From: Camelus dromedarius
Lineage: Eukaryota
Reading direction: 5' to 3'
NCBI RefSeq assembly: GCF_036321535.1
Contig: NC_087436.1
Coordinates: forward strand, 48,672,001 to 48,736,000
DNA length: 64,000 nt
In this document: piece after piece, positions 5,302-62,892 of the stretch
Numbering within the stretch: position 1 is the first letter of the stretch
Layout of the letters: each line of letters begins with the position of its first letter
The notes under the pieces: generated by a model
Databases searched by the model: none
Seen by the model: the letters and a program-made list of their open reading frames with translations, nothing else
What the model was told of the DNA's origin: nothing
Translations under genes and position numbers: made by a program

Positions 5302-7447
5302 TATATGCATAGAGGTGTATATAACAAACAAATTAACATAGGCAATCCAAATAAGCCACCAGTAATAAGAATAAGAGTGCTAATGATAATACTACTAATA
5401 AAAATGACTTCCTACCTATTGAATGCCTCATATGGCCAGATGTTGTGTTAAGTGCTATACAAATATTATACTATTCAAATTAATATGCACGAATCCTGAC
5501 GAAAGTATTGTACTCTTTCTTTCAGATAAGGAAACTGAGGATCAGAGAGGCTGACTAATTTGCCCGATATCACACAGCTGGTAACAGACAGAGATGCATG
5601 TTATCAGTGTGAAAACGGCCTTGACGTTGATGATAATGAGAGGCCTCCTGGGCCCATGAGCCAGGAGACCTGGGCTGCAGGCTGAGGATGAAGCACCTTC
5701 AGGCAGAGGTGAGCAAGTGCACAGTTAGCGCGGAGGGGGCGGGCAACCCTCAGCCCCTTATTGCCCACTCCGTGTACCCCACCCTTTCTGAGGCAAGCAC
5801 AGACCAACAGGAGAAAGCAGGGGGCTACAGCCACTGCTTTTGGTGACATTGTCATGGTGACAGGGCCCTGTGATTCCACCGTTACTCCAGGGACTTATAG
5901 AGGCCTCACTGAAGCTCCCAGGGGCAGGCACTTCATTTCCTGTGAGGTATCTCATTCAATAAACTTGCACCCATCACCAAAGAGGTAATAATAAATATCT
6001 TCCTTTCCCTCCCCTCCTTTCTAGGCCAAATCCTTGGCCAGTGCTAACAGGAGGTTGGGGGAAGTTTTTGACGAGGCGCCCCTCTGGGAAAGCAGGACAT
6101 TTTAGCTGTTTTATGTCCCTTCTCTACATCCTGCATTGGCCACACCACTTTCCTAGTCATATAGGGCCCACTCCCCTCTTTGTAATAGAGTCCTTGAGTT
6201 CACATCACTGAAGTCTGGGTTGGTCAAAGTCATGGTTCTTAATTTGGAGGGTAGCAATTTGGGGCCACATTGTTTCTCCTGTCTCAGATACCCTGGGAAT
6301 CACTAGGAGCTGAGAGCCAGCTTGCTTCCCTCAGGACCGCGGCCAGCTGATCCTTCTCTGTCAGCACGACTCACGGAGGATGTCCACCTTTTGGGTCTCA
6401 GAGCTGGGCCCTGGGCTCTCGCCAGGCATGTTTTTAGCAGGTTTCTGGAGCCTGGCTTCCTGCCCAGAGTTTCCACTGAAACTCTGGCACCCCTGCTGGG
6501 ATTTGGCTGGAACCAGGAAGAACTAAACTTGGCTTGATGGCCCATATCCCAAATGTCCTCATTTCACAGGACATCCGGCTTTTTTCCTGCTTTCCTGAGC
6601 AGGTCCCATGAAGTTGCTCACAAGCTCTGCTGCCCACCATCTCTCCCTGTGAGGCCGATCCAGGCTGACAGCACTTGATTGGTAATTGAGGATATCCATT
6701 TCTAGCGCCCCTCTCTCCGCTAGACAAAGAACAAACTAAAAAGACCCAGTTGTCAAATAGAGTCCAAAACACTAGTTGTATCGCTGCTGAGCAAGATTTA
6801 AAAAGGCAGCTTGGATCTGTTGGCTGGCACCATTGTCCCCTCCAGGGGCAAGGTCTCCCCCGGGGGGCTTACAAGATTGAGGAAAATGTGGAAACGACAA
6901 GGGGGCAAAGAGAGACAGAAGTGAGGCCCCGTTAGCCCCACCCAACAGGGAACCGGGGACCAAGATTCTGGCTGGACAACAGTCACTGCTCCTGGGGGCG
7001 GACGGAAGGGAGGGGAAAGAAAGGAAAGTGCGGTGACTTCCCTGCTAATTCTGAAAAGGGAAAGTTTCTAAATTTGTGGGTTGGCAGGGACCCAGGGAAG
7101 GGGGAACAGCAAACACCACCCACCCTACTCTGAACTCCGTTCCCTACACACATCCGAGAGTTGTATGGACAAGCAGCTAAAAAAGGACACAGGTAAGAAT
7201 AACAAGGAAGAAAAAACGTATAAGGATAGAAGGAAATATGAGAAATATGAAACATCCTGAAGAATAATTCAAGGACCTAAACGCTTCCTATCTTTTAGAC
7301 AGTTTTAAAGTTACCAAACATTGCTGAGATGCAAATACACTGAGGCTACAGAAGAAGGAGTGGAGGAGGATGGTTGACATTCTCAGGTAAACTGTACACT
7401 CAAAGATATCCCTTTCATGAGTTTTGCTGATGCTGAAGTTAAAGAAG

Positions 7448-7538
7448 TTTTTTTTTTAAATGGAGGTACTAGGAATTGAACCCAGGACCTTGTGCATGTT
7501 AAGCATACACTCTACCACTGAGCTATAATCTACCCCCC
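7448..7538 (-). mobile_element. tRNA-Ala-derived SINE (camelid Vic-1-like)
   Basis: Reverse strand: gggggg..tatagctcagtggtagagtgtatgcttaacatgcacaaggtcctgggttcaattcctagtacctcca plus A tail. Confidence 0.8.
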
Positions 7539-13149: not shown

Positions 13150-13452
13150 GGGCAGTGGTTCTCTAGTATTAGCATCACAATTACTGCAGGGCTGTTACCA
13201 CCCAGACCGCTGGGCCCCCACCATTAAATTTGGTGAAGTGGTGATCAGGTTTATTTATTTGTTAATGGAGGAACTGAGGCCTGAACCCAGGACCTTGTGC
13301 ATGCTAAGCATGCTCTCTACCGCTGAGCTAAACCCTCCCCCCTGGATTTTGATTCAGTAGGTCTGGGATGCGCCTGAGACGCTGCATTTCAGACACTTCC
13401 CTGGTGATGCCGACGCTGCTGTTCCAGGACCACACTGTGAGAACCCACTGTT
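13150..13452. mobile_element. MER5A-like hAT-Charlie MITE (interrupted by SINE)
   Basis: cagtggttctc ... gattcagtaggtctggg ... ggaccacactgtgagaacccactg (inverted termini). Confidence 0.7.
13250..13342 (-). mobile_element. tRNA-Ala-derived SINE (Vic-1-like) nested in a MER5A-like element
   Basis: A box (tagctcagcggtagag), B-box-like gggttcagg, AAAT tail; MER5A-like sequence on both sides. Confidence 0.8.
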
Positions 13453-22958: not shown

Positions 22959-22984
22959 TTTATTTACAAAGAATTATTTTTATT
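22959..22984 (-). terminator. Tandem polyadenylation signals (AATAAA at 22979-22984 and 22959-22964)
   Basis: Minus strand reads ...ccaAATAAAaataattctttgtaAATAAAaacactgtt..., then T/GT-rich downstream element (ttgtctatttcttgttttgagttttt). Confidence 0.75.
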
Positions 22985-24010
22985 TGGCTGTCTGGAAAAC
23001 CACAAACATTTTTCACTTTAGAAAACATTAAATAATAAACAAGATGTTATACAGTACTTTGGATAACTTCTTCCATCAGTGTAGTGCAATGTATTATTGG
23101 CACCTAAAAGTGAAATTTTCTATTCTCCCCTTTCATCTTCAGTTGTATAGTTACGTGACCAAAAAGGAAATGAATCATTAAAAACGGATCTAAAGCCATA
23201 TTTTCTGGCTTTGACTCAAAGGCTTACTGATTTATAGTCCCCCTCTGGCCTTGCCTCCACCAAGTTAAATGATGAAAGACATTCTACTGTACCAATTGTT
23301 CCAAAACATTACCATTTTGTGGAACTTGGGAGGTTCCAACTGACAAGAGAAACTTACACCATCAGGTGAAGGAAAGGTCCTGGCAGTGGTGTTGGGCATG
23401 GCACTCTATCAGTAGCCTGGTTAGGTTGTCACACACCTTGCAGAGAGAATGCACCAGATAAAAATCTCTCTAAATTGTTTTCTTTGCTATGATCTCTTTA
23501 AAAATTTGTAATATCCATTAAGCAAGGGAAAGGGCAATACCTTTACTAAGAAAAAAGAAATATATACTACCACATTAGAACATTATTGAGATACTAAAAT
23601 GTCTGTCCATCAGACTCTTTTGGAATAAATAGATTTTAAACTTTTTTTTTTTTTTTTTTTTTTGCTTTTGTTTCATTTTAATACTGCTAGGTTTGACATA
23701 AAGGGAGAGACATTTAGTGAGCTCAGCAGTTGGTGGGCTTTTCCCCTTTTTGATTCCTTTCCATTAGGAGGCCAAGAAAAAAATACCTAAATTAGACCTT
23801 AGCCTAGTTCAAGTTATTTAGTTCTGGAGATTTTCACTGCATAGTAATAGGATTAAAACATCTTTAGGGAGATTCTGTTATTGTTACTCTGCCTTGAGGG
23901 AAGAACATCTTTAACCATCTTAAATAGAAAAAAAAAAAAAAAAAACCTTATCTAATTTTTTAAAAGCCTCAAAAAATTCACACTTTTTTGGTTTAAACAA
24001 AGGTTTCTAA

Positions 24011-24256
24011 TTAACAACTGTCCCTGCCAGGAAATGGCCCCTCACACTCCAGCCTAAGCCTGCTTCCTCTTGTTCTGTTCTGAGTGCATGTGGAGGACAG
24101 CTGGTCACCGTCCTCTCTGTACCAACCCTTCATATACTTGAAAACCAGCAATGGTTTGCCCCTCAGTCTTCTCTTCTCCACGCTGAATAATCCCAGTTCC
24201 TTTAATTTTTCATCATAGATCTCTTTTTCCAACCCTTTAATCATCTTTGTGATTCC
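24011..24256 (-). mobile_element. CR1/L3-type LINE remnant (ORF2 C-terminal region) inside NPNT 3'UTR
   Basis: Translates TKMIKGLEKEIYDEKLKELGLFSVEKRRLRG...FKYMKG, matching the typical CR1 ORF2 tail (TKMIKGLE..SYEERL.ELGLFSLEKRRLRGDL..YK..KG). Confidence 0.85.
24241..24255 (-). CDS. NPNT: Putative alternative terminal coding segment (ESQR*) using a 3' splice site inside the 3'UTR
   Basis: ttttctgctgtttttgccag|GAA TCA CAA AGA TGA; in frame with the phase-0 exon 11 donor; I recall a human NPNT cDNA ending GADIKSESQR. Confidence 0.6.
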   Translation of the reverse strand, partial: ESQR

Positions 24257-25625
24257 TGGCAAAAACAGCAGAAAATATTTTGATTACTTAATCAGAAATA
24301 ATGAAAAGCCTCAGGAATAAGTTGCCTTTTAAAAGTTATGTATATTTTCAATATAAAGGTAAAATTTACAGGGAGGAAACAGAGTTGGGGGTTCATAGAT
24401 CTTAGAATTCCAATCTTGTCCTGTTGCTTGAGTGTGTGTGTGAATCCCATTCTGACACATCCAGTGCCTCAAAGCATGGGACTTGCTCCCCATCCCATCC
24501 TGACACAGCAGCGCATAAGTTATGATCTAGGCCCCCCTAAATTTAAACTGATTTAAAAATGAGTGGGAGAATCTGTTTCAACAGAGCTTCCCCCCATGCT
24601 TTCCCTCACCCTGTTTCCATAAACAGAACCTTTTTTCTGAAACAACCAGAACTTTCATAAAGCTTCTTAAGATCACCAGAAAGGGCCATTATTGTTAGGG
24701 TAAAAGCTGTTGGTTTTAAAGTGGAGCCTGAAACAGTGAAGGTTTTATGGGTTAACTGCAGTTTCCTGTCAACCTGAATGGTCACTATCCTTTGTTGTGA
24801 TCAAACTCAAGGCCATTAAGAAATTCATCCCCTCACTACCACAAACTGACACCTCTTCCAATTTTCTCTGGCTGCCAATATAAGGTCATGGAACTAAATG
24901 ACATTCCACCGTGCATTTTTTAACTCAAGAGATCACAAGCTGCCTTTCCCTTGCAACTAGAGTCTGTAAATATTGGGAACACGTCACTACTTAATATCAA
25001 TAGCACATTTACACAAAACACAATACTACTAACAAGAGATTACGTGCCCACTCTACATAATCGTCTTTAAAAAGAAAAATACAGATAACAAGAATAAATG
25101 CATCTTGATATGTTATACACCCTTCTTTTATAAAATGAATGGCAGTAAAAGTCAGAGTTCAGGCCAGACCAGAACTAATAAGTGGAGAGGATAAACCAAT
25201 TTCACAAGCACATTGTACAACGTATCTTAGCAGAAGTCAATACTACTCGTGGTACAACACTGAACAGATAACAGAATGGCCATTTGCAGATTTCTTTTGA
25301 AAACTTCACCCATAATTTGCTGCAAGGAACAACACCTTGTAACTAGGATGAAGGGGGTATAGGTCACACTTGCCGAAGGCCTTCTTAAAAAGAGACATCG
25401 GCTGGAAGGTAACACCCAAAGATGGCTTTGGATGCTTCTACAGATGCCCCCTGTATTTCAAGGGGGGGTGTCACTGTTCATTGGGATTGCACAAAAGCAG
25501 GCCAGCAAGATGTGGGTCACCAAGCAGACTTTCTCCTGACCCACTCTTCTAGGCCTGATAAGAGGGAGGAGAGGACAGGTGGTGAAGATTGGAAAAAGAA
25601 GAGGGAGCAACATGGGGGTTCATGG

Positions 25626-25736
25626 CTAGTTCTGGAGTTGCTCGCGTTCTTCAGAGCACTGGCCTTTTTTCAAGCTCACATCATCCAATCCAATCTCCCC
25701 CGTGTGACCACGCCTTTTTTCACCTTTGAAGATGAC
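25626..25736 (-). CDS. NPNT: NPNT exon 12 coding part (MAM C-terminus and stop)
   Basis: ctctccctag|GTC ATC TTC AAA GGT ...; [36 protein letters not shown]. Confidence 0.95.
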   Translation of the reverse strand, partial: VIFKGEKRRGHTGEIGLDDVSLKKGQCSEEREQLQN

Positions 25737-28700
25737 CTAGGGAGAGAACGCACACACCAGTCAAGCCTCCTCTACCCCTTCCCAATGCCCGCTCATTTAG
25801 CAAAACAAACGCAAACTTTCCCCAAAACTGAACAGTAAACTTACTTAACAGAAGGAAAGACTAGAACAGAGGTGCCAGTGTCACCTGAGGCTTGCCTTTT
25901 GGTAGAAATTTTAGTCATCAGTAAATTGTTAACTGGACCACATTACCCAAAATCAGTTACACTTTAAAAAGCTATTCTAAATGATAGACTGCCTCCATTT
26001 AGGAATGATTAGGAACTGGACACTTCTGTCAAAGATTTCCCAAAGACAGAAGAGTGTGATGGGTCATAAAAGGCAAGAAATTAGGAGCCAAAGATCTGAA
26101 AGATCATAATCATGCAGCCTCTTAGAGGTTTTCTAGTCCCTCCTCCGGGTTAATTTAATTTAGCTTTGATGCCTAAAATGGAATAGAACCAAACACCCCA
26201 GTTCCATTTGTTTCACTTATGTAAAGAGCAAAACCTTTCTTGTATTTTATCTTCTGTACAGCATCCTTGCTCCTTTGAGAACAGAAACCTATGTTATGCT
26301 GTGAAACAATGTTTTGTTTCTCCAAATGATATAAATATTAAGAAAAATTTTAAGAGAAAAACAGTAAAACAAAATCCAAGACTCTGATAAAAGCTGTCTT
26401 AATGGAGTCTAACCTTTCTTTTACCTATACCTATACCAGTTTTGTAAGTATTGACATAAAGAAAACAGTTTTTCCAAATATATTCACTATTTCAGTGGGT
26501 TGTTATAGATCATTTTACTTCTACCTATGACTAATTAGTTAAGATAAAGTTTATATATTCAATCAAAGTTTTCCCCACATCCTGTCCTGAATAGAATAAT
26601 ATTTTCCAAACATACTGTTCTGGTTCCCACCCAAGGCTGCTTAACTATGATCTCTGAGGCAAAGGGGGGAAAAAAAAGACTTTAAAGAAACATTTCAGAA
26701 AAGAAAGAAAAAACACTTGAGGGTAACTCATGGTGGTCAAAGTTTGAAGTATAAGCAGTTTAAGGAAAAGCAGGTAGTTAAGCCCACCGTCGCCCTTCGA
26801 CGTTTCTTCTGATTAACTTTTCCACCTTTTCAACCGCTAAAATTTGTCATTAAAAAGAGGGGATTTTCACCAGGGTGGGGAGAGCGGAGGTGGTCCTGGT
26901 TGCGATGGAGAACGGACGAAGGAGAAAAGGGACTACAGAAAGAGGCAACGCACAGGGTCCCCACGCCCACAAAAAGCACGAGCTGAGCTTTGGGCCTGAA
27001 CGAACGGACAGCAAAGGCTTCCGACGCCGACCCCAGAGCCGTCCTCGGAAAGGAAACCTCCCAGGTCCTGCCTCCTCGGCGGGTCTACTTACGCTCTTGA
27101 CGTCTGCCCCTCGCAAGGTGATGTGCGTTTGCCTCCAGCCATGGCCACCATTTCTTCCCCACAGGGCTGCTCCGTGGGCCCCGTGTTTCCGCACAAACAC
27201 CTGGAGCGTGCCGGAGCGCAGCCCCGCCACCTTGTGCCTGAACGACAGGCATAGGTCCCCTGAGTGCAGGCGGTGGCCGAGAGGGAGCACCAAGCGCGCG
27301 GCTTTCCCCGCGGGGCCCTTGGCTGCCGAGACTGTCAGATACTGTCCACCTGCAGGGGGAAGAGCAGGGCCTGTGTGGGCGAGCCCCGCGGCCCGGCCCC
27401 GCCGGCCGGCCGCGGCTTCTCCTTCTCTTGTTTCCACAGACTGTGCCGGCCATTTGTAAAGAATTCCAGATTTTTGAAGGAGAAACACAGGACTTATATC
27501 TATGGCTGTCTTAAATTCTATGGTTTTATATTTACAGAAAACACTCACTCCCTTTGCTCAGGGGGAATACAGATTCTGCCAAGGACACACAATGATTAGC
27601 GGTCCTAACACTATGCCTGTTACCAGCTACATACGATCAGACACACCCAGGCGTGCACACAGTCGCTGCCTCTGGATCCTCACGCATCTGTGATTGCCCT
27701 GTCGCGCTGGCTGGCTGGTAGGGTGGTTGGCTTAAGTTGCCAGGGAGACGTTTCTAGGTGGATTTCCTACCTCCAGACAGTAGGGCAGATGATGATTTAA
27801 AGGAGGCACTAGACCTGTTTATTCTCTCCCCTCCCCACTTAAAAAAAAAAATCTCTAAAGAGAAACGAGTCCTTTAAAAATGAGTTGGCTGTGCTTCTCA
27901 CACCTAACTCCAAGATGCAGAAATGCTCTGGAAACCCATCACATCTTCCCTGCAGCATCCATTTGCTTTGAAAGTAGTTTAAAACGTTTTATATAAAAAC
28001 AAATCCATAACAATATAATGAAAGTAATATATCAATTTTCTATTACATATACATGAACACAAAAAGTTAATAAAAACTGTCCCTTTGGGAAGGTCACTTT
28101 GATAATGCCTTAGATTCCTAGGGCTATAGACTTGCTTCCCTCAATTGTTAGAGGAACTGCAGTTAAGGGGGAAAAAAGTTTGAGCAGCAGTGAAGTGGGG
28201 GGTGCTGCTTCTCAGGAGAGGGCAAGTGGCAAGTTGTATTTTGAAGCTCAATTCATGTACAAAGGCTGTGCCCCTCAGCCTGTTTTATTGCAGCCAACTG
28301 AAAAACACAGTTTCAACACTGACTTAGCTAAAGGAAAATGTGGTTGGAATGCTCAACACGTGTATCTGTTTTGGTAGAAAACCTGCCTATTTTTCATTGG
28401 AAAGATAAACCATCATTTCTTGTGCTTAATCTGTACTGGACATGACAAGGTTTGGGATGTCCTACTCTTCAAGTGACTTCTCCTCTACCAAGTCCCCTCT
28501 GAGTCTTCAAAGGACCAGTCAGATGGTATGTGTATCTGTGATGCACCAGGTTCTATGCGAGTGCTCTGCGGGGAGCGTCTCATTTAGCCCTACTAACAAG
28601 CCTTTGAAGTGAACACTTGTTAGCTTCTGCATCTGCAAAACAAGACTAAGGCTTTGAGAGGTGAAGTCACCCAAGGTGTCACCCGGCCAGTGAGTGGCAG

Positions 28701-34700: not shown

Positions 34701-37700
34701 GCTGGACTTTTAATAAACTGCTTGTCATCTTATAATTCTAATTGATAGCTAACAAATTCAGTTTTCCCTGAAAAAATGGAAGATGGATGCTGGACAAGCT
34801 GTCTTTACCCTCTTATTAAGTCGACATAGAGCTGTGTCCCAGTATACCTGATCAGCAGAACTGGGGGCCTCAGATGGGCTCCAACTGAAATATGTTGGGT
34901 GAGATGAATGGTCTTACCTGCTGGATCCCTCACTGGTTCCCAGTGCAGGTCACTGTCTTTTTCCCGGATCCATCCACAAAGCCCATGGTCAAAATTACAA
35001 CTGTGTATCAAAACACCTGCAAGGAAGTGACCAGAAAGATAAGTAGACCATTGACCCGACAGCTAACAACAAAAATGAATTTGTGAACCAGAGCTGTCTG
35101 TACAGCAAGTGCTCTCTCCTATCCACACTCAGCAATCCTGCCAGAACACCTCCGTGAGGTCAGAAGGAAATCACAATACCTTCTCTCAGCACAATTGTGC
35201 ACATGTGCTCAGCTGTAATAACAGAACACATGAATGGTGCCAAATGATGACCTTGTTACATCATCACTTATACAATATGATTTCCTCCTCAGTTTAAATG
35301 CTGCTTTAATATTTTTTTTAAAAAAAGAATATAGTGATGAGTCACCATTTTTCCTCAACTGACTTAACTATAGAGGAAATTAAGTTGTAAAAAAATGTAT
35401 AATTTTCCCAGCTGTAATCAAACAATCTACAAAGTTTTTTTCATGAAATAAAGGGAAAAAATAAAATGTCATTAAAACGGCACTACGAATGCAGGTATCT
35501 ACCTGGATCATCCTTTGCTTCATCATCTGCACTGACTCCTCTTTCAATTTCAAATATTTCAAACAAGTCATTTGAAGGCTGCCGTGGGACTGCAAGAGAG
35601 AGAGGAGTTTTGTTTTGCTGTGATGAGGTATTGACAACAAGGCATTGCCTTTAACAGTGGGGCAGGGGCAAGACCTAGGCATTTCACTCATCTTGGAAGA
35701 ATCCAAAACATTCAATTACAGTTCACATGAAAATTCATGAAGTTTGTTCTGCAGAGATGTACACTGTAACATTTATCTGGGTAAAATTTTTTAAAAATGA
35801 TTTTCAAAAGTTTCTAAAATTCAACATAAAATACATTCAAAATTCTATCTGGAAAATACATTTTTAAACAGCTTCCAATTTCTAGCAAGATATCTCTATG
35901 AAATTCTAAAATGTGTTTCTATGGAAGATACATTATGAACTCTGAGGCTGTTTTATTGGAAAAATGCTTCAATTGCAGTGAATAGTTCGATTTTCTAACC
36001 ACAGCATCCACCCTCTCCAGTGAACTCTTGTCTGTCCCTGTCACACTCTAAGCTGTATTTCCTACCATAGCCTCTTGGGGCTCAAGCAGGTTCCCTGGCT
36101 CCTTTACAGTCAGATCCAGGTGGGTGTAGAGCTCAGTGGCAGAGCACATGCTTAGCATGCACAAGGTCCTGGGTTCAATTCCCTGTACCTCCATTAACAA
36201 CAACAACAAAGAACTAAATAAATAAATAAAAGCTTAAAAAAAAATCAAATCCAAACTCCTAGACACAGCCTTCACAATCCAACCCCCAAAACACACAGGA
36301 CTGTCCAAACATGCCATTCATTTTTCACATCTCTGACCCCATCCCCAGCTTGGGATGCTCTTGTTCCTGCTAATTAACCTGCTAAACTTCCTCTCCCCAT
36401 TCAAGGCTCAGCATAAATAGCACTCCCAGGGCAGAAATGTTCATGTTCCAGGCGAATTAAATTCTTCCCCACTTCCAAGGCTCATGTTTACATGCCTCTA
36501 TTACACTCATTCATAAAGAATTACAGTTACTTACACGTATGCGTGTCTGTCCCTCTGCTGGCCTGCAAGGTCTCAGAGGGCATCAGTCATGCCTTATTCA
36601 TGGGGCGTTTCCAGCGCCTGACCTAGTGACAGGCACTCACTAAGTGTTTACTAAACAAGTGGGAAGAGCTTGTCAGAAACCCATGTACTTTGTCAACCCT
36701 TTTCCTCAAATGAAACAAGTGGCACAGAGCTTTAGAATACACTTTAAAAGAAAATGGATTCACATGAATCTACAGTTAGTTACTCATTCAAAGCAGATCT
36801 GATTGCCACCCTACACCAAGTGCTGGGGTAGGTCCCGAGGAGAGAGGGTGAAAGCGTGAACAAGACCAGCAAGGACCTGGTCCTGTGAACACCACACCTC
36901 TAAATTCTGATGTGGGCTAGGACGGAAAAACACCAGATGATGTCAGGGAGAGTGACTGGGTTGGAGGTGGGGAGTGTGTGAAAATGTTGCTGGTGGGGAG
37001 GGGAATTCTTGGCCCATGACCAGGGAATCCTCCCTTTTCTTTGCCAGAACTTAATTAGCTCTATTTTTATAAGGCAGGGAGTAAAAGATGTGGAACACCA
37101 AGGAACAGACATTGGCCAAAAGGGTTCCTTTTCAACCATGTTCCAATTATTTTTAGCAAGAATTTTTTACATTAGGTAACAATCCTATAGTATTTGCACT
37201 GATTTATTTTTAGCTTACTACTTTAAAATTTCTTTCCTTTTTGTTTCCAAAGTCCGAACAGTGATGCCCCTTCTTCTCCTACCACCTCCCGCTACCCCTG
37301 CCACTCACATTTACACATACACACAGCCTGAGACAAGGGAAGAAAAGCTGGTCAGTGGACGAGATCTGGGGACGCTACCTGATCACAGGTGCCCTGGGGG
37401 AGGCAACTGGCCACTCTCTTTTACACCCAGATAACTGACAACCATCACATCTAATTCCAGCTCTCCTTTTCCCATTTGGGCCTCTGAGGGGTAGACTGCC
37501 TCTTGTTCATTAGAAATATAAAGTTGCAGGCAAGCATGCTTCATTTCTCATGACGAAGAGGAAGTTTAAAAGAAAAAAACAAAACCGCAAACCTAAAGAA
37601 CAATCACTTTTTTACTCCCTTCTCTTGGGGTAACTTACACAAATTATCTCTGGATTGGAATAGCTCAAGTCTTACAGTGCCCTATTTTAGGGGCATTAGG

Positions 37701-46700: not shown

Positions 46701-49700
46701 AATGGAGGAAAGACAGTCTTTTCAATTAATGGTGCTGGGAAAATTGGACAGTCACATGCAAAGGAATGAATCTAGATCTCCACTCACAAAAGTTAACTTG
46801 AAATGAATTAAAGACTTGAACATAAGACCCAAAACCATAAACCTCTAGAATGAAACACAGGAATAAAGCTCCTTGACATGGGTCTTGGCAATGATTTTTT
46901 TTAGCTACAACACCTAAAGCACAAGCAACAAAATAAAAAATAAATAAGATGACATCAAACTAAAAAGCTTCTGCACAGCAAAAGAAACCATCAACAAAGT
47001 GAAAAGACAACCGATGGAATAGGAAAAAAATTTGCAAATCATATATCTTTCAAGGGGTTAATATCTAAAATATACAGAGAACTCATACCACTTGAGAGCA
47101 AAAAACCAAATAATCAAATTAAAAGTGGACAAAGGACCTGAATACACATTTGTCCAAAGAAGATATACTAAATGGTCAATAGGTACATGAAAAGATGCTC
47201 ATCATCACTAATTATCAGGGAAACGCAAGTCACAACCACAGTAAGATATCACCTCACACCAGTTAGAATGGCCATTATCAAAAAGACAAGAAATAACAAG
47301 TGTTGGGGAGGATGTGGAGATAAGGGAACCCTTGTGCACTGTTGGTGGGATTGTAAATTGGTGCAGCCACTATGGTAAACAGTATGAAGTTTCCTCAAAA
47401 AATTAAAAATAGAACTACCATATGATCCAGCAATACTAGCTCTGGGAATATATCCAGAGGAAATAAAAATAAGTCAAAGAGGTATCTGCACCCTCATGTT
47501 CATAGCATTATTTACAATAGCCAAGACATTGAAACAACCTACGTGTCCACTGATAGATGAATTAATGAAGAAGATGTATGTGTATATGCACACACACATA
47601 TATATAGGGAATACTACTGAGTCATAAAAATGAGAAAATCCTGCCATTTGAGACAACATGAAAGGACCTTGAGGATATTATGCTAAGTGAAATAAGCCAG
47701 ACAGAGAAAGGCAAATACCATATGACCTCACTTACATGTAGAATCTTAAAACAAAATAAAACAAACTTACAGAAAAAGAGATATATTTGTGGTTACTAGA
47801 GGTAGGAAGTGAGGGAAGGGGGAACTGGATAAAAGTGGTCAAAAGGTACAACTTTAGTTATAAGATTAAATAGGATAAACTAGGGATGTAATGTACAACT
47901 TTAATGACTGTAGTTAAAACTGCTGTATGACACATGGAAGTTGTTAATCAAGTAAATTCTAAGATTTCTCATTCCAAGGAAAAAACATTTTTTCCCTTTC
48001 GTTGATTTTATGTCTATATGAGATGATGGACATTAACTAAAGTTACGCATATCATGAAATGATTACCACAGTAAGTTAAACCATTATGCTGTACTCTTTA
48101 AACTCATACAGTGCTATATGTCAATTACATCTCAGTAAGACTGGGGAAAAAAACCCCTCAAAATATGTGCCAACAATTATAACTTACTAAACACGTCTCC
48201 TCTGGGTTTCTGAGGCTCTGTCTGTATTCTGTTGTCAACTGTAATCCCCCTTGGAGAGGTAGTGGTAACTGGTGCTACAGTTGTCAGTCTGCTGGTTGGT
48301 CTTTCTGGGGTTGTTGCTGGTGGAGGTGTTCCGGGTTCTGTGGGTGGCGGTGGAGGTGGGGTAGGCTGTGGCATCGGCTCTGGTGTAGGTCTTGTTGTTG
48401 GCTTAGAAGTGGGCCTGTTAGTAATGACAGGAGGTATATATGGTGTCTTCAGAGGCCACCTAGTACTTCTGACATCAGGAATCCAATTACTGTGTCCTCC
48501 ATCACCCTTTGAAATAGTACCATTTCCCCTTGGTACATGAATTGGACCCGAAGGCTCAATCATGACTTTTGGAATATCTAGAATAGTAAATATATTTAAA
48601 TTAGTGTGTAACCATCTCTCCTTAAAAAGTAAAATATCAAATTGTAAAAAACACACATATCAGAATACCTCATGCCAACTAGGCTTACTTTTCTCGTTTA
48701 GAATACTCCCCTACTGTAAGTCATATCGTTTTCCAAAAAAATAAATATGTGTGTATATATAATATATACATATATATTCATACACACATATATCCATCCT
48801 ATGGATGTATGCAAAAATGACCAGTATTGCTGTAATGAATATGTACCATTTGAAACAAAAAGTTTCAAGTATTTGTAAAGTAGAAAAAGACAAGAATGAG
48901 ATTTTTTTTAAAATGCAGAGACATTCTAAGTTTTTTAAAATATGAGGAACATATATTTAGAGTCTGTGTTAAGTGTCTGCATGGTACATGTATATTATAA
49001 AGTCATGTTGAAAACCGTCTAAAGACTTAATACTCTTCCCTCTTCCACACTTTATATAAATTGAATTCATACATTTTCATTCAATGTTCTACGTATTGTT
49101 TTATAGTTGGTTTACTTTCCCCTTGCTAATTTTATACAACTGCTTTGTAAAAAGAAGTTTCACAGGTCCCCAAGACTATCTGTGGAAGCTTTGTCCTTGA
49201 TCACATTCACCAAAAGGAATTAATATTTAATCTTTCTGGAATGATATACTTTAGACTGGCAGTATGACTACAAGACCCATCAAAATCCTTTAACCTTCAT
49301 GATTTTATGCCCCATGCCTTTCAGTCAATATTTTACTCCAGAAATTTAAAAAATTATCTACTGTTGCAATGAAATGTATGCTCAATGATGGCCTTTGGTC
49401 TGTGAAACTTTCACCTTGGAGGGTATTTTTTTTTTCATGTTTATCTACTAACAAATAGAGCTTGTAAAAATTTAAATAGCAGAACAGTTCAAAATGTAGA
49501 AAACTACGGAAATGATTTTTTAATAGTAGAACTGGAGGCATAAAACAGGAACAAAAATGTAGAATTCATTCAGATTATCCCACCATTATAACCTAATGCT
49601 AATGACAAACATACATTTATTTCTGATTATAATGAAATCAAGTTCTCAGGGAGGGCTCAGTAATTTCTTGCCAGCTAAAGGGAAGCTACTGGGAGATTTT

Positions 49701-58700: not shown

Positions 58701-61700
58701 TAAAAAATACTCCAGAATTATGCATAAATTTATGATTTTCATAAAGATCTTATTTAAGTAAATAACAGGCTATGTTTTCATTCAAATGTAAGAACTTACG
58801 TCATATTTAGACGTAATTAGACGTTTAATTAGACTATACATAAGACACCCCACCAGGACACAGATAAGATTGAGATGTCTGGGACTGGGGGGAAAAAGAA
58901 GGATAAAGAGAGAGGCTTTTGGCAAAAAATGGCTAACTGTTGCCATTAGTAGCTTACCCAAAATATTATAAAATGGATGAGACCCAAAGTAGAATCAAAA
59001 AGGCAATCATATCCTGTTTCAAGACTATCATATTAGTAATAGTCAGTTAAACTTCCAAATTAAATGAACATTGGTTTCTGGGGCTGAAACCACACATCCT
59101 TCAAAGAGTAAGGCCTTAGCTACCTTCATGTTAGGGTCAAGGCACTCAGACTGCTGTGCTCAGGAAAGCAATCAACTGAGACTTCACCGTCTGGTTCTGT
59201 GCTACAAGATCCCAGTTCTTTTCTTGGGATAAGGAATTCAACATATGAAGCATAAACCATGGCAAAACATCAGTAATTGAAATTTATAAACTGTTTCTTC
59301 TGAAGCCGTTACAAAGCACACTGTAAATTCAAAAGAATATCTTTCGTTCCTAGAATTATGCAACAATAGGATACATTACATGCCAAAAATTATTCCCTAA
59401 TGGGAAAGTTATGAAAAAGATTATTTTCTATAATAGTATCCCTTTTTGGCTGAGGGGAAAGGGGATTTGTACAGGTACAGAAACTCAAGGAGGGGGAAAT
59501 CTACATGAATAAAATTACCCAAGAAAGTAAGGTGGAAAAAAGCCAATCTTGCCAGAGTTCAGGTTAGAATTTCATCTACTGTGGAAGGCACTGTGCCTTA
59601 CGGAACAGGCTTGTGGTCAGCCCAAGTGCACGATTTTGTATGTGACCTGGCTCCAGCAAACCCAGGGGATGATTCGCAGGGAGGCACGAGCCACCAGCAG
59701 CAGATTCACACTAATCTTGTGACGAGGCTGTGGAGTGAAGCCAGTTCCAAAGTGGGCTTGCCCTGCCACTCCTGCTGCTCCCAGGCAGCCCTGGAAGCAC
59801 TCATTAGGTGCCTGTCATCTACTCAAGCTGTTCACTCAGCCAAGCAAGTTTCCAGGGAGTGATTTCCTAAAGTACACAGCCTGCAACACAGTTTACAGCG
59901 GATACTTACTGGATGCCAAAACCTACTTTTAATCAAAAGTTAATTTCCAGTTCTGTGGAAATTATCTCAACTGTATCTCTTCTTGATATTTCTATCCTCA
60001 AGAAAAAAGAGACCTGCCTGATTTCCCATATCTCTGAGGCACGTTTTCCACTTTATTAAAATGTATGGTCTGGGGGTGGGGGGGTATAGCTCAGTGGTAG
60101 AGTGTGTGCTTAGCATGCTTGAGGTCCTGGGTTCAACCCCTAGTACATCCATTTAAAAAAGAATAAAAATAAAAAACGAAAAAAAAAGTATGGTCTGGAC
60201 AAAAATAGTCCAAGTTAATTTTTCTATGTAGCAGATATGGACAATTTGCTCTAATGATGTTTCCGGGGGTCTCTGGACAGCTCTCCCCCACCTTCGCGCA
60301 GCCTCTCTCCCCGTGACAGTCCACGGAGTCAGAGATGAAGCAGCTGTACCAGATGCCTCCATGGGACTTTTTCAAGTTCCTATGGGGTTCAGGACCAAGA
60401 ACTGTTACACAAAAACACTCACTAAACAAGTATTTAATGTGCACTTCTCCTGTGCTAGTCATTTAAATAACAGTTTTCAGGAAAACCAAGAAATCAAAAG
60501 GGTGCCTGCTCTCAAGGAACAGAAACCTTCCCATCGGGAACTTGCCACAGCTGCTTTTTTGGAAAGGAAGGAAAAGAGACAGATGATTAAAACACCTAAG
60601 TTTACTGTGGGCTGGAGTTTTATACTCAAGATTGAACGTGAAATTACATTTTCAGTGGCAGCACTCTTTCTGCAAGTGTAAAATCCATTTTGCCACTAAT
60701 GAAATCTTCTTCCCCCTAACTATATTTAGTTTTGGGAGACAAGATTTCAACTCTGTGTATTTCAATCTTCCTTTAGAGAAACAGGTATGAAATTATAGGG
60801 AAAAGTACATGGTAAACTGGTTTTCTGAAAATGAGATACCCAGAGATGCATCTGTGTTCCGATGACGGTTTTAGTGTCTCTGCAGCTTATTAAAGTTGAT
60901 GTAGCTCCTGCAAATAAATTTAAACGAATTTCTCTGCAATCTCAACAGTGGCTTCTTTTAGTAATTGCCTTTGTATAAATTCCTGGCATCAGGACAACCA
61001 AGTTTTATGGTGCTGACATATTAATGAAAGCTCTGATGGTTTATGTTCAGTACTTTAAAAAAAAAAAAAAGAAGCACGCTGGCACGCTCAGATTAACACT
61101 GACAACTCAATAATCAGAACTGAACATGCTGCTACTTGTGAACATACACTGCAGAAGGAAAATCAAATAGGTTTTTAAAAGAGTAAACTGAGATAATAAG
61201 AATTTCAAAAATACTACTCATGTATGTTAGGTAAATTCCAAGTTTAAAAAATGAGTTTTTAAGATAGAGAAGCAGCTTTAGGGGAAAAGGTAGTCAACCA
61301 AGTAGAAGATAAAAAAGAACAGACTTTAGAATAACAGTTAGTCCTCCCAATGGCCATGTCACACTTCACTAACAGATTTCACCTGGTAGTTCCGGAACAA
61401 TTACATACACTTTCAAATATCAGTGTTCCTGATTCTTGTGAAAACCTGTGGATCACGAGTTTACATGACACACTTTGAGGACTATCAGATATTGAAGAAC
61501 AAGAGCATTTCAACAAGATCATTTCTGTATCAGATGAAGTTAAGTAAGTGCCGATAGGACAGTGAGACCCTATGCAGCTGTGTCATTTGACACTTAAAAT
61601 GACAGGGATTATTACTCTAAGAAATAAGTGAAATGTTTGACTTTTTCATCCTTGCATCTCTCTAGTGAAATCTAACCCTAGCTTTTCTTTCCTTCTGTTT

Positions 61701-62892
61701 TCTTTTTCAATACCTAACGGTAGAAAATTTTGGTTGAGATTAATTGAAAAGACAAGACTTGACAGCATGGTTATGCAGCCTGAATTAGAAGATCACACTT
61801 CCAATGATACTTTCCGCATCCAAAACTGTATTGGTAGAAAGAACATGAGTTATACAGGCAATAGCTCTACGTTGACACAGTAGATCTTTTACCAACAAAT
61901 TTGGTAAACTTGGACAAGACACTTAATATTCCTGATATCTCTTCAAATGAAAAATCAAATAACAATATTATTTATAGCTTAATTGTAACATACAGCGCTC
62001 AACCTCCTAATGTTGTTGTAGTGTTGAAAATAGAGAATATATATAAAATACCTGGGCATTGTGAGAGCTAAATAAATATTTGCTTTTATAAGCAACTGAT
62101 GCCAATGAAAAATAACTTGCTAAGTTAATCAAAATCTATCTTTCTCAGAGCGCATTACAAACTGGTCAAGGGATGAAGGGAATTCAATCACAAAGATCAA
62201 AGAGCTCAGAGTTGGAAGGGACCTCAAAACTTCAAGCCAAACCTCCTACCGGGCTTTGAGTCTTAAAGTGTTTTCATTTAGCTGAGATCCAAGGGGGCTA
62301 ACAATTTGCAAAAGCTTCCCAACCAGTTAGAGGAAGATCGAGGAGGAGCAGAATGTAAGGCTTCTAACATTTAACATGTTACTAATGATGCAATTCTCTT
62401 TCTCAAAAAGCATTTTCATTATTAATAGTGAATAAGAGGATGAAATTCTTTTAATTGTCCTCCAATTAAATAGATTTTAAAAGATTTACCATTCTTGGGG
62501 TGAGAGTATAGCTTAGTGGTAGAGCGCATGCTTGGCGTGCACAAGGTCCTGGGTTTAATCCCCAGTGCCTCCGTTAAGGGCGTTAAAAAAAAAAAAGGCA
62601 AAACAAAACATAATGAAAATAAATAAATACAACTAAAAAAAAAAGTCACCACTCTTATATTTTTATCTTTCAGCCAAATTGCATCTCATATATTTGGGGA
62701 TAATAGTCACGGAAAAGTGATTTGCATGAGAACTTAAATTCTTTTATCAGACAGTAGAGGAGGCTTATGATTGTTTACTGTGTCACACGGCTTCCCTACC
62801 TTGATTGCAGGTTTTCCCAGCATATCCAGGATGACACTTGCACTTGTTAGGTCCGATACATTCACCATGTTTGCACTGTGGCTGGCATACAG
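25626..62892 (-). CDS. NPNT: Nephronectin, 5'-partial multi-exon CDS (exons 3-12; exons 1-2 outside window). Join: 62800-62892, 53587-53706, 52130-52249, 50356-50490, 49930-50052, 48188-48577, 35503-35589, 34918-35016, 27093-27349, 25626-25736
   Basis: Ten GT-AG exons totalling 1535 nt splice in frame: five EGF-like repeats, Pro/Thr-rich linker, [18 protein letters not shown] domain, TAG stop at 25626-25628. Domain order and peptides match nephronectin; the LFEIFEIER motif distinguishes it from EGFL6. Confidence 0.98.
26780..27450. promoter_or_regulatory. Intragenic CpG-rich island over exon 11
   Basis: About 30 CpG by hand count in 27061-27420, against a CpG-depleted background; GC-rich intronic tract gagccccgcggcccggccccgccggccggccgcgg. 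Confidence 0.6.
27093..27349 (-). CDS. NPNT: NPNT exon 11 (MAM domain core), 257 nt
   Basis: cccctgcag|GT GGA CAG TAT ... AAG AGC|gtaagt; [24 protein letters not shown]...[11 protein letters not shown]...[15 protein letters not shown]. Confidence 0.97.
30190..30750 (+). mobile_element. Old L1ME-like 3' fragment
   Basis: gaaatgcaaattaaaa..ttgttggtgtgag..tttgacccag..gaatttatccta..ctggaaacaact..aaatgt. Confidence 0.6.
32250..32830 (-). mobile_element. Degraded CR1/L3 LINE remnant in intron 10
   Basis: gtcatccgcagactggttagtatg..ttcatccaagttgttagtaaa resembles the antisense of the CR1 RT (F)ADD region; cttctccaggttgaa resembles the CR1 tail. Confidence 0.5.
34918..35016 (-). CDS. NPNT: NPNT exon 10 (MAM domain start), 99 nt
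   Basis: ccttgcag|GT GTT TTG ATA ... GCA G|gtaaga; [32 protein letters not shown]. Confidence 0.97.
35503..35589 (-). CDS. NPNT: NPNT exon 9 (integrin alpha8beta1 synergy motif LFEIFEIER at 35540-35566), 87 nt
   Basis: ctcttgcag|TC CCA CGG CAG ... GAT CCA G|gtagat; [29 protein letters not shown]. Confidence 0.96.
36119..36244 (+). mobile_element. tRNA-Ala-derived SINE (Vic-1-like)
   Basis: gctcagtggcagagcacatgcttagcatgcacaaggtcctgggttcaattccctgtacctcca plus (CAA)n/(AAAT)n tail. Confidence 0.8.
38440..39085 (+). mobile_element. L1 ORF2 3' fragment
   Basis: Translates [22 protein letters not shown] and [20 protein letters not shown]. Confidence 0.85.
43590..44780. mobile_element. L2 remnant with a probable nested Tigger-like MITE (~44230-44443)
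   Basis: cctattatgtgccaggca..gtgttccagaaagaggaaacag..; inverted caggtcca / tggacctg-ta ends inside. Confidence 0.55.
46475..48153 (+). mobile_element. 5'-truncated L1 (L1MA-type; ORF2 C-terminus plus 3'UTR), antisense to NPNT
   Basis: ORF 47172-47378 [41 protein letters not shown]; 3' end tgtcaattacatctcagtaagactggggaaaaaaa. Confidence 0.92.
48188..48577 (-). CDS. NPNT: NPNT exon 8 (Pro/Thr-rich mucin-like linker with RGD at 48195-48203), 390 nt
   Basis: attctag|AT ATT CCA AAA ... GAC GTG TTT A|gtaagt; [11 protein letters not shown]...[10 protein letters not shown]...[12 protein letters not shown]-glycosylation sequon. Confidence 0.97.
49930..50052 (-). CDS. NPNT: NPNT exon 7 (Ca-binding EGF-like 5), 123 nt
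   Basis: gatgcag|AT ATA GAT GAA ... GTG T|gtgagt; [41 protein letters not shown]. Confidence 0.97.
50356..50490 (-). CDS. NPNT: NPNT exon 6 (Ca-binding EGF-like 4), 135 nt
   Basis: tttctag|AT ATT GAT GAA ... CAC G|gtaata; [45 protein letters not shown]. Confidence 0.97.
50570..51500. mobile_element. L2 remnant(s)
   Basis: ccctagtccaagccactatctc..agcctccaaactgg..; 3' end ctagcacttagcatagtacgtggcata..ctcaataaat. Confidence 0.6.
51530..51755 (-). mobile_element. MIR SINE
   Basis: tgcttactacatgctagatactgtgc..cccattttaaagatgagaa..cctaaggtcaca..gccaggtttgaa. Confidence 0.7.
52130..52249 (-). CDS. NPNT: NPNT exon 5 (EGF-like 3), 120 nt
   Basis: tttccag|GT GCC CTG ACG ... GTG G|gtgagt; [39 protein letters not shown] (not in the ORF track, read manually). 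Confidence 0.97.
53587..53706 (-). CDS. NPNT: NPNT exon 4 (Ca-binding EGF-like 2), 120 nt
   Basis: ttttcag|AC CTG AAC GAG ... TCG G|gtatgt; [40 protein letters not shown]. Confidence 0.97.
58157..58249 (-). CDS. NPNT: NPNT alternative cassette exon between exons 3 and 4, 93 nt, phase 1/1
   Basis: cttcttcctggtgtgaag|AC GAA CGC ... TCA AGG G|gtgagc; encodes [31 protein letters not shown], resembling the insert I recall from long human/mouse NPNT isoforms. Confidence 0.85.
60072..60187 (+). mobile_element. tRNA-Ala-derived SINE (Vic-1-like) with target-site duplication
   Basis: tatagctcagtggtagagtgtgtgcttagcatgcttgaggtcctgggttcaacccc; A-rich tail; GTATGGTCTGG repeated at 60063-60073 and 60188-60198. 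Confidence 0.85.
62497..62644 (+). mobile_element. tRNA-Ala-derived SINE (Vic-1-like)
   Basis: tatagcttagtggtagagcgcatgcttggcgtgcacaaggtcctgggtttaatccccagtgcctcc; A-rich tail; degenerate TSD accattctt/accactctt. Confidence 0.8.
62800..62892 (-). CDS. NPNT: NPNT exon 3 (EGF-like 1), 93 nt
   Basis: ttttcacag|CT GTA TGC ... AAT CAA G|gtaggg; encodes [30 protein letters not shown]. Confidence 0.97.

Follow-up and report, generated by a model that had tools for sequence, protein, structure and literature searches.

A 3' splice site at the edge of a LINE remnant in the nephronectin terminal exon, a possible conserved route to MAM-defective nephronectin in placental mammals

Background

Is a 3' splice site at the edge of the LINE remnant in the 3'UTR of the nephronectin gene (NPNT) used, and if so, what kind of nephronectin would come from it? 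The 64-kb stretch of Camelus dromedarius DNA analysed here, called the window below, contains the 3' part of NPNT on the minus strand, and the C-terminus that it encodes matches that of a Camelus ferus record. The accessible parts of two papers describe how, in kidney and lung, the MAM domain holds nephronectin in basement membranes and the RGD is presented there to integrin alpha8beta1 (PMC3365501, PMC7956348). Exons from CR1 elements are rare according to the accessible part of a survey that counts 12 in human protein-coding genes, 4 of them sense-oriented and 3 giving just the 3' site, and that counts six orthologous human-mouse exons from transposable elements, four of which are MIR (PMC2394776). 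A sequence-only reading of the window had put forward a strong acceptor at the edge of a CR1 remnant and a MAM-truncated isoform ending in ESQR. We followed this up in database records, by homology searches, by structure prediction and by comparison of the remnant among mammals.

Results and discussion

The distal 3' splice site lies within the normal terminal exon

All features given here are on the minus strand. Exon 10 (34918..35016, boundaries from sequence) encodes the start of MAM with its first two Cys and ends in a phase-1 donor, and exon 11 (27093..27349) ends in a phase-0 donor, GTAAGT. The normal intron 11 (25737..27092, 1,356 nt) is followed by the coding part of the normal last exon (25626..25736), which has 36 codons and the stop and encodes the last MAM strands and the fourth Cys, and then by 1,370 nt of proximal 3'UTR (24256..25625). 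The distal 3' splice site (24256..24295) is present as described from the sequence, with CAG at 24258-24256, a pyrimidine tract (13 of 16 positions from -20 to -5) and a TAAT-type branch candidate at -29; a second branch candidate at -37 fits YTRAY better, and the AG-free zone is 29 nt long. Among the 274 AGs from 27050 to 22950, the distal site ranks first and the normal exon-12 acceptor (25736) tenth by a crude ad hoc score (pyrimidines, T count, the -3 and +1 bases and the AG-free zone) that is not MaxEntScan. A second good-looking acceptor, rank 2 of the 274, is at 25554, about 70 nt below the normal stop, and no collected record was assigned to it. Both GC and CpG are abundant in exon 11 and its flanks (27050-27420), where a short GC tandem lies at 27383-27411.

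The distal exon begins at 24255. Exon 11 ends at 27093 in phase 0, as had been claimed, and its join to the distal exon reads ESQR and stop (24241..24255) both in the sequence and in records. This join loses 111 coding nt (36 codons and the stop) as well as the 1,370 nt of UTR that are lost in every distal-acceptor join, close to the 1.4 kb estimated beforehand. In phase 1 the exon is open for 80 codons up to a stop (24011..24253), and the first 63-72 of these codons align to ORF2-like LINE proteins. A run of 22 A on the transcript strand (23642..23663), about 600 nt below the acceptor, is a possible internal oligo-dT priming site.

The sequence-only reading had taken the distal exon for an alternative last exon, and the join does alter the C-terminus and place the stop in the final exon. 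From 27500 down to 22985 there is no AATAAA; the first two lie at 22984 and 22964 (22959..22984), in what is likely a poly(A) region shared by both forms, the putative cleavage site and normal mRNA end being placed there. The distal acceptor is therefore a distal 3' splice site 1,481 nt within the normal terminal exon, upstream of poly(A) signals common to both forms, and the notion of a separate last exon was rejected.

Six donors are joined to the distal site in database records

The human 509-aa record P0155 (EAX06194.1, 'CRA_a'; KAI2535452.1; KAI4026551.1) has the same exon-11 join and ends in GADIKSESQR, exactly the C-terminus that the sequence-only reading had named for a human NPNT cDNA. 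The human records are silent on a LINE origin, on other donors and on a phase-1 tail. We take this isoform to be also the PRO334/UNQ295 cDNA. A search that had exon 11 as its query and did not target the tail gave 120 records. Five of these use the distal site: three end in ESQR and two read VIFKG directly into the LINE frame. Cluster look-ups brought the exon-11 ESQR records to 11 from 10 species (human, chimpanzee, drill, rabbit, pig, yak, vaquita, common dolphin and two bats), a count from which four LQR-ending records with exon 10-12 joins (P0163, P0169, P0171, P0351) were excluded.

The ESQR end is just one outcome. Six donors are joined to the distal acceptor in the records, a hub that had been missed in the first reading, and in the window each of these donors has a GT or a GC. 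Four of them are internal donors within the last coding exon, at 25724 (GT, phase 1), 25680 (GT, phase 0), 25664 (GC, phase 1) and 25646 (GC, phase 1). From phase-1 donors the LINE's own ORF2 frame is read as an 80-residue tail, which is found in 26 records (four rodent tail records included) from 18 species of four placental superorders. The commonest route, in 11 species, is from the exon-10 donor (34918), with DPAG joined to the tail, and its users include deer, sheep, two whales, two hyenas, a fruit bat, squirrel monkey and armadillo. Three dolphins and two rodents have the donor after VIFK, alpaca and dugong that after SLKK, and wapiti that after EE. The donor after LDD leads to ESQR in P0186, an assembly-derived protein from a sequencing-run contig that spans exons 8-12, and this junction is in no named record collected. 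Altogether 38 of 297 NPNT-like records use the site, 26 with the LINE frame against 11 with exon-11 ESQR and the one assembly-derived LDD-ESQR protein, in a sample that a search with the LINE frame had enriched for the tail. Thus, although the ESQR isoform is indeed annotated, the view that ESQR is the only product was rejected, as phase-1 donors yield the tail in more records. No LINE-frame record from human was found among the NPNT-like records collected.

The 37 named records come from 28 species in all four placental superorders, so that the acceptor, guessed to be common to primates and the camelid lineage, is more widely shared than that. For the species of the window, putative use rests on the alpaca RefSeq model P0196, which uses the site and whose tail has 79 of the 80 residues of the window's tail. 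RefSeq models are two of the 11 ESQR records, and the other nine are from Ensembl/UniProt or GenBank annotation sets. The pipelines behind these sets can project human models onto other genomes, and many of the ESQR records may have arisen in this way from the human transcript. The five donors beyond exon 11 are not explicable by projection of one human ESQR transcript, and we infer that real junction reads underlie the gene models of placental mammals.

The exon edge coincides with the start of LINE homology

In the 64 kb there is one strong match of ORF2-like homology. Thirteen ORF2-like proteins of other genomes align to it, from starts at 24253-24238 to ends at 24065-24032, with 48-60% identity and E values of 1e-13 to 1e-21, and several of these alignments are gapless over 63-67 codons. 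The homology is thus exonic and runs from the first codons of the distal exon. Five of the 13 proteins extend upstream of the matching residue and yet none aligns past the acceptor, which shows that the homology begins at the exon edge; on this protein-level comparison the AG itself may lie within the LINE or just outside it. We take the family of the remnant to be CR1, as in the sequence-only reading. Its claim that homology starts at the acceptor holds for an ORF2-like LINE, whereas the CR1 label has no support from Pfam, which gave no family for three ORF2-like proteins or for the tail. Neither tail nor ESQR was found in 149 new cluster representatives, non-mammal-like NPNT included, a weak result with one protein per 50% cluster.

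Other observations were made on the remnant and on repeats. P0233, a hypothetical protein labelled Klebsiella pneumoniae on a 289-nt contig, is ORF2-like with 60% identity to the remnant and is probably vertebrate DNA in a bacterial assembly. An ATG at 24242-24244 in the remnant opens a 77-codon ORF that has been called as a stand-alone protein in many mammal assemblies (P0150-P0153, P0204-P0226), and in the normal NPNT mRNA it would be a possible downstream ORF. Elsewhere in the window a dispersed repeat of 80-110 nt at 36114-36231 has copies at 7447-7527, 13259-13347, 60080-60186 and 62499-62577 that are 75-85% alike. It resembles a camelid tRNA-derived SINE, presumably Vic-1.

Every modelled product loses part or most of MAM

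Pfam MAM profile positions 1-158 are covered by the normal protein, 1-124 by the ESQR form and 1-138 by the VIFKG form, and the exon-10 form has no MAM match. The model of the normal domain (P0001, mean pLDDT 77) matches the MAM domains of neuropilin-1 and meprin. On this model the ESQR cut at residue 151 would split strand 148-157 and remove strand 165-174 and Cys177, so that the predicted loss of the last MAM strands and the final Cys amounts to half a strand, one whole strand and the fourth Cys. The usual partner of Cys177 in MAM is, we assume, Cys98, which would then be unpaired in the ESQR form. With two strands missing and Cys98 unpaired, the MAM sandwich may fail to fold and may stay in the cell, which counts against the favoured explanation given below. 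Upstream of the joins, and kept, are the EGF repeats, RGD and the LFEIFEIER exon. Deletion of MAM lowers the binding of nephronectin to QBRICK, Fras1 and Frem2, as given in the accessible part of PMC3365501, and frees it from cells into the medium, as given in that of a review (PMC7956348). The engineered MAM-less nephronectins in the accessible parts of these two papers are like the natural forms in that EGF repeats, RGD and LFEIFEIER are kept and MAM function is lost, but they are clean MAM deletions, whereas in the natural forms part of the domain is left or a foreign tail takes its place.

Other C-terminal variants were seen in the records. When exon 11 is skipped, exon 10 (34918) is joined to 25736, and a frameshift leads to a stop after four residues in the last exon. 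This skip is annotated in human (X12, X13), occurs in one assembly-derived protein and is the join of the four LQR-ending records named above; as read from these joins, it is predicted to be a second route to MAM-less nephronectin. Seven records (P0138-P0140, P0168, P0276, P0317, P0337) end a few residues past RGD by intron read-in at about 48180-48195, possibly an intronic-polyadenylation form without LFEIFEIER and MAM. The normal C-terminus of the window (25626-25640) extends five residues (EQLQN) beyond the primate end SEER, and records of pig, ruminants, whale, bat and seal share this longer end, while mouse-like rodents end right after the last Cys.

A conserved minor route or splicing noise

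The explanation that we favour, and to which we give about an even chance, is that the acceptor at the first base of the LINE remnant, joined to six donors, is a conserved minor route to a MAM-broken nephronectin that is secreted with its integrin sites intact and is poorly anchored. The strong conserved acceptor would divert a small share of NPNT transcripts to the distal exon, and the diverted mRNAs would have a shorter 3'UTR and a MAM-defective product and, with the stop in the last exon, would likely escape NMD. If secreted, such a nephronectin would keep EGF repeats, RGD and LFEIFEIER as a poorly anchored alpha8beta1 ligand, and the deletion experiments in the literature predict that it would bind QBRICK, Fras1, Frem2 and heparan sulfate less well. 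The outcome would be a more diffusible alpha8beta1 ligand or competitor.

Of 76 assembly-derived proteins, 12 fall short of the region and were excluded. The remaining 64 have the exon 11-12 join in 50 cases (1,525 contigs), intron read-in in 12, the exon 10-12 join in one and the distal site in one; the distal site is thus in a single contig against 1,525, although assemblers drop minor paths and one in 64 gives no precise bound. It is likely from these assemblies that the distal-site forms are minor. Their rarity also fits splicing noise, a possible if somewhat unlikely explanation, by which the remnant is kept for some other reason, such as an RNA-binding or enhancer sequence, its edge makes a good acceptor by chance, and what is spliced there gives rare, misfolded proteins that have no function. 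The six donors, none of which is dominant, agree with this, and so many donors, two of them GC in the window, look like leaky splicing to a strong acceptor. What speaks against noise is that the acceptor can be used in 28 species, in four superorders, to judge by their records. It also speaks against noise that, in what is an ascertained sample, ESQR is identical in all 10 species for which there is an exon-11 record, so that three third positions in the other frame are fixed; rodent records alter the first residues, so that the ESQR peptide is not universal.

Conservation of the remnant and the LINE-frame tail

The tail is 72-90% identical among 11 named species, and the EGF repeats are 92-96% identical. 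Intron 11, translated from eight of eight read-through records, is 27-43% identical, a rough control in which one of the eight records is from a named species and the window is GC-rich at that place. Constraint is greatest beside the acceptor, with 1.28 against 2.38 distinct substitutions per codon, and this peak is a further point against noise. Conservation also continues past the stop of the tail, where nine of 10 residues match in another frame at 23976-23947 (E 0.71 alone, colinear), which fits the favoured explanation as well as noise around a remnant kept for another reason. By these comparisons, the remnant evolves slowly.

Is the tail itself then a protein sequence under selection? 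By this explanation, which we think improbable, the remnant is a domesticated LINE coding exon whose phase-1 frame is under protein selection, and most of MAM is swapped for a basic 80-residue module of the ORF2 C-terminal region. Its full form, equally doubtful, is that the ORF2 tail has been domesticated since the placental ancestor and that regulated splicing swaps MAM for the tail or ESQR, by which an alpha8beta1 ligand is switched between anchored and diffusible or differently anchored. The gapless alignments over 63-67 codons, the 18 K/R among the 80 residues of the tail and the use of the phase-1 frame by the commonest route, from exon 10, are in its favour. The same stop closes the frame in 17 of 18 named species, of which one has a 2-residue deletion. 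It does so too in 23 of 33 mammal-type ORF clusters, after 10 of 43 ORF-search matches had been set aside as non-orthologous ORF2-like copies, but a protein search finds open frames only and biases these counts toward open, and an unselected frame at the observed divergence would be stop-free in 44-51% of pairs with substitutions only. A Kogia record has a stop after nine tail residues. The 10 short or shifted clusters are three of ruminant type, which are probably assembly errors, two that look cut, one with an internal-Met start and four that are possibly real, and the last also speak against domestication.

A two-frame comparison with a sheep-type record gave six silent and five replacement changes in 38 codons and a dN/dS of 0.30-0.37, which would favour domestication, but this is one pair with P=0.04-0.09. 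A metagenome scan for orthologous DNA for dN/dS gave 589 pattern matches and none was confirmed. The 113 single-base substitutions of the tail have a mean BLOSUM62 of -0.56 against -0.47 expected under random change (P=0.72), whereas exons 11 and 12 depart from the random spectrum (P=0.001 and 0.008). This neutral look supports noise and counts against domestication, but the coding linker does not depart from random either (P=0.66), and therefore the test is weak for unfolded regions. The fold prediction for a cetacean-type orthologue with a 30-row alignment gave pLDDT 49.9 and pTM 0.17, so that the tail has no confident fold, which agrees with noise and not with a stable module. We infer that the constraint is mainly on the RNA or DNA sequence and less on the tail peptide.

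Very unlikely, finally, is an annotation artefact, by which a single human cDNA would have been carried over to other genomes by projection and the open LINE frame would have attracted gene finders. Nine of the 11 ESQR records are from annotation sets able to project in this way, and the A run at 23642-23663 could bias cDNA capture. Against an artefact, the five further donors are for the most part in RefSeq X isoforms, for which NCBI relies on aligned evidence, and the P0186 junction is absent from the named records collected.

Comparison with known systems

One of the closest known systems is ZRANB2. In the accessible part of PMC3384923 the Plat_L3 element of ZRANB2, of the CR1 family, is an ancient remnant near the 3' end of the gene that gives a splice site and changes the C-terminus, and, like the element in NPNT, it is better conserved than its flanks. 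The ZRANB2 element is intronic and adds about 11 residues, whereas that of NPNT is in the normal 3'UTR, is joined to six donors, removes the last strands of a folded domain and has an ORF2 frame readable for 80 codons. Links of NPNT splicing to lung disease are described in the accessible parts of PMC10550956 and PMC13094348 for the NAGNAG variant rs34712979, by which a single serine is gained close to the N-terminus and which has no relation to the distal site.

No paper on the distal site, its LINE origin or the tail was found in a literature search whose coverage excluded most subscription papers, and the long-read Saferali 2025 study of NPNT in lung may list these isoforms. There is no mention of NPNT in PMC9004415 (text and supplement), in the text of PMC2203978 or in the one searchable supplement of PMC2394776, and the accessible parts of PMC8916771 and PMC2760121 have nothing on the distal site. 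What is already known is thus the annotated ESQR isoform, and the LINE origin, the donor hub and the conserved tail are unreported in the literature searched.

Conclusions

If the distal site is noise, caution is called for, as the LINE-derived tail in the gene models of at least 18 species may not exist as protein. If, on the other hand, the tail is under protein selection, a fragment of LINE ORF2 has been grafted onto an extracellular protein. If the favoured explanation is true, this would be a rare case of a sense-oriented CR1 remnant in use as an exon across all four placental superorders, and a placental-wide splice route that removes MAM, and drops the proximal 3'UTR too, would be a testable source of unanchored nephronectin.
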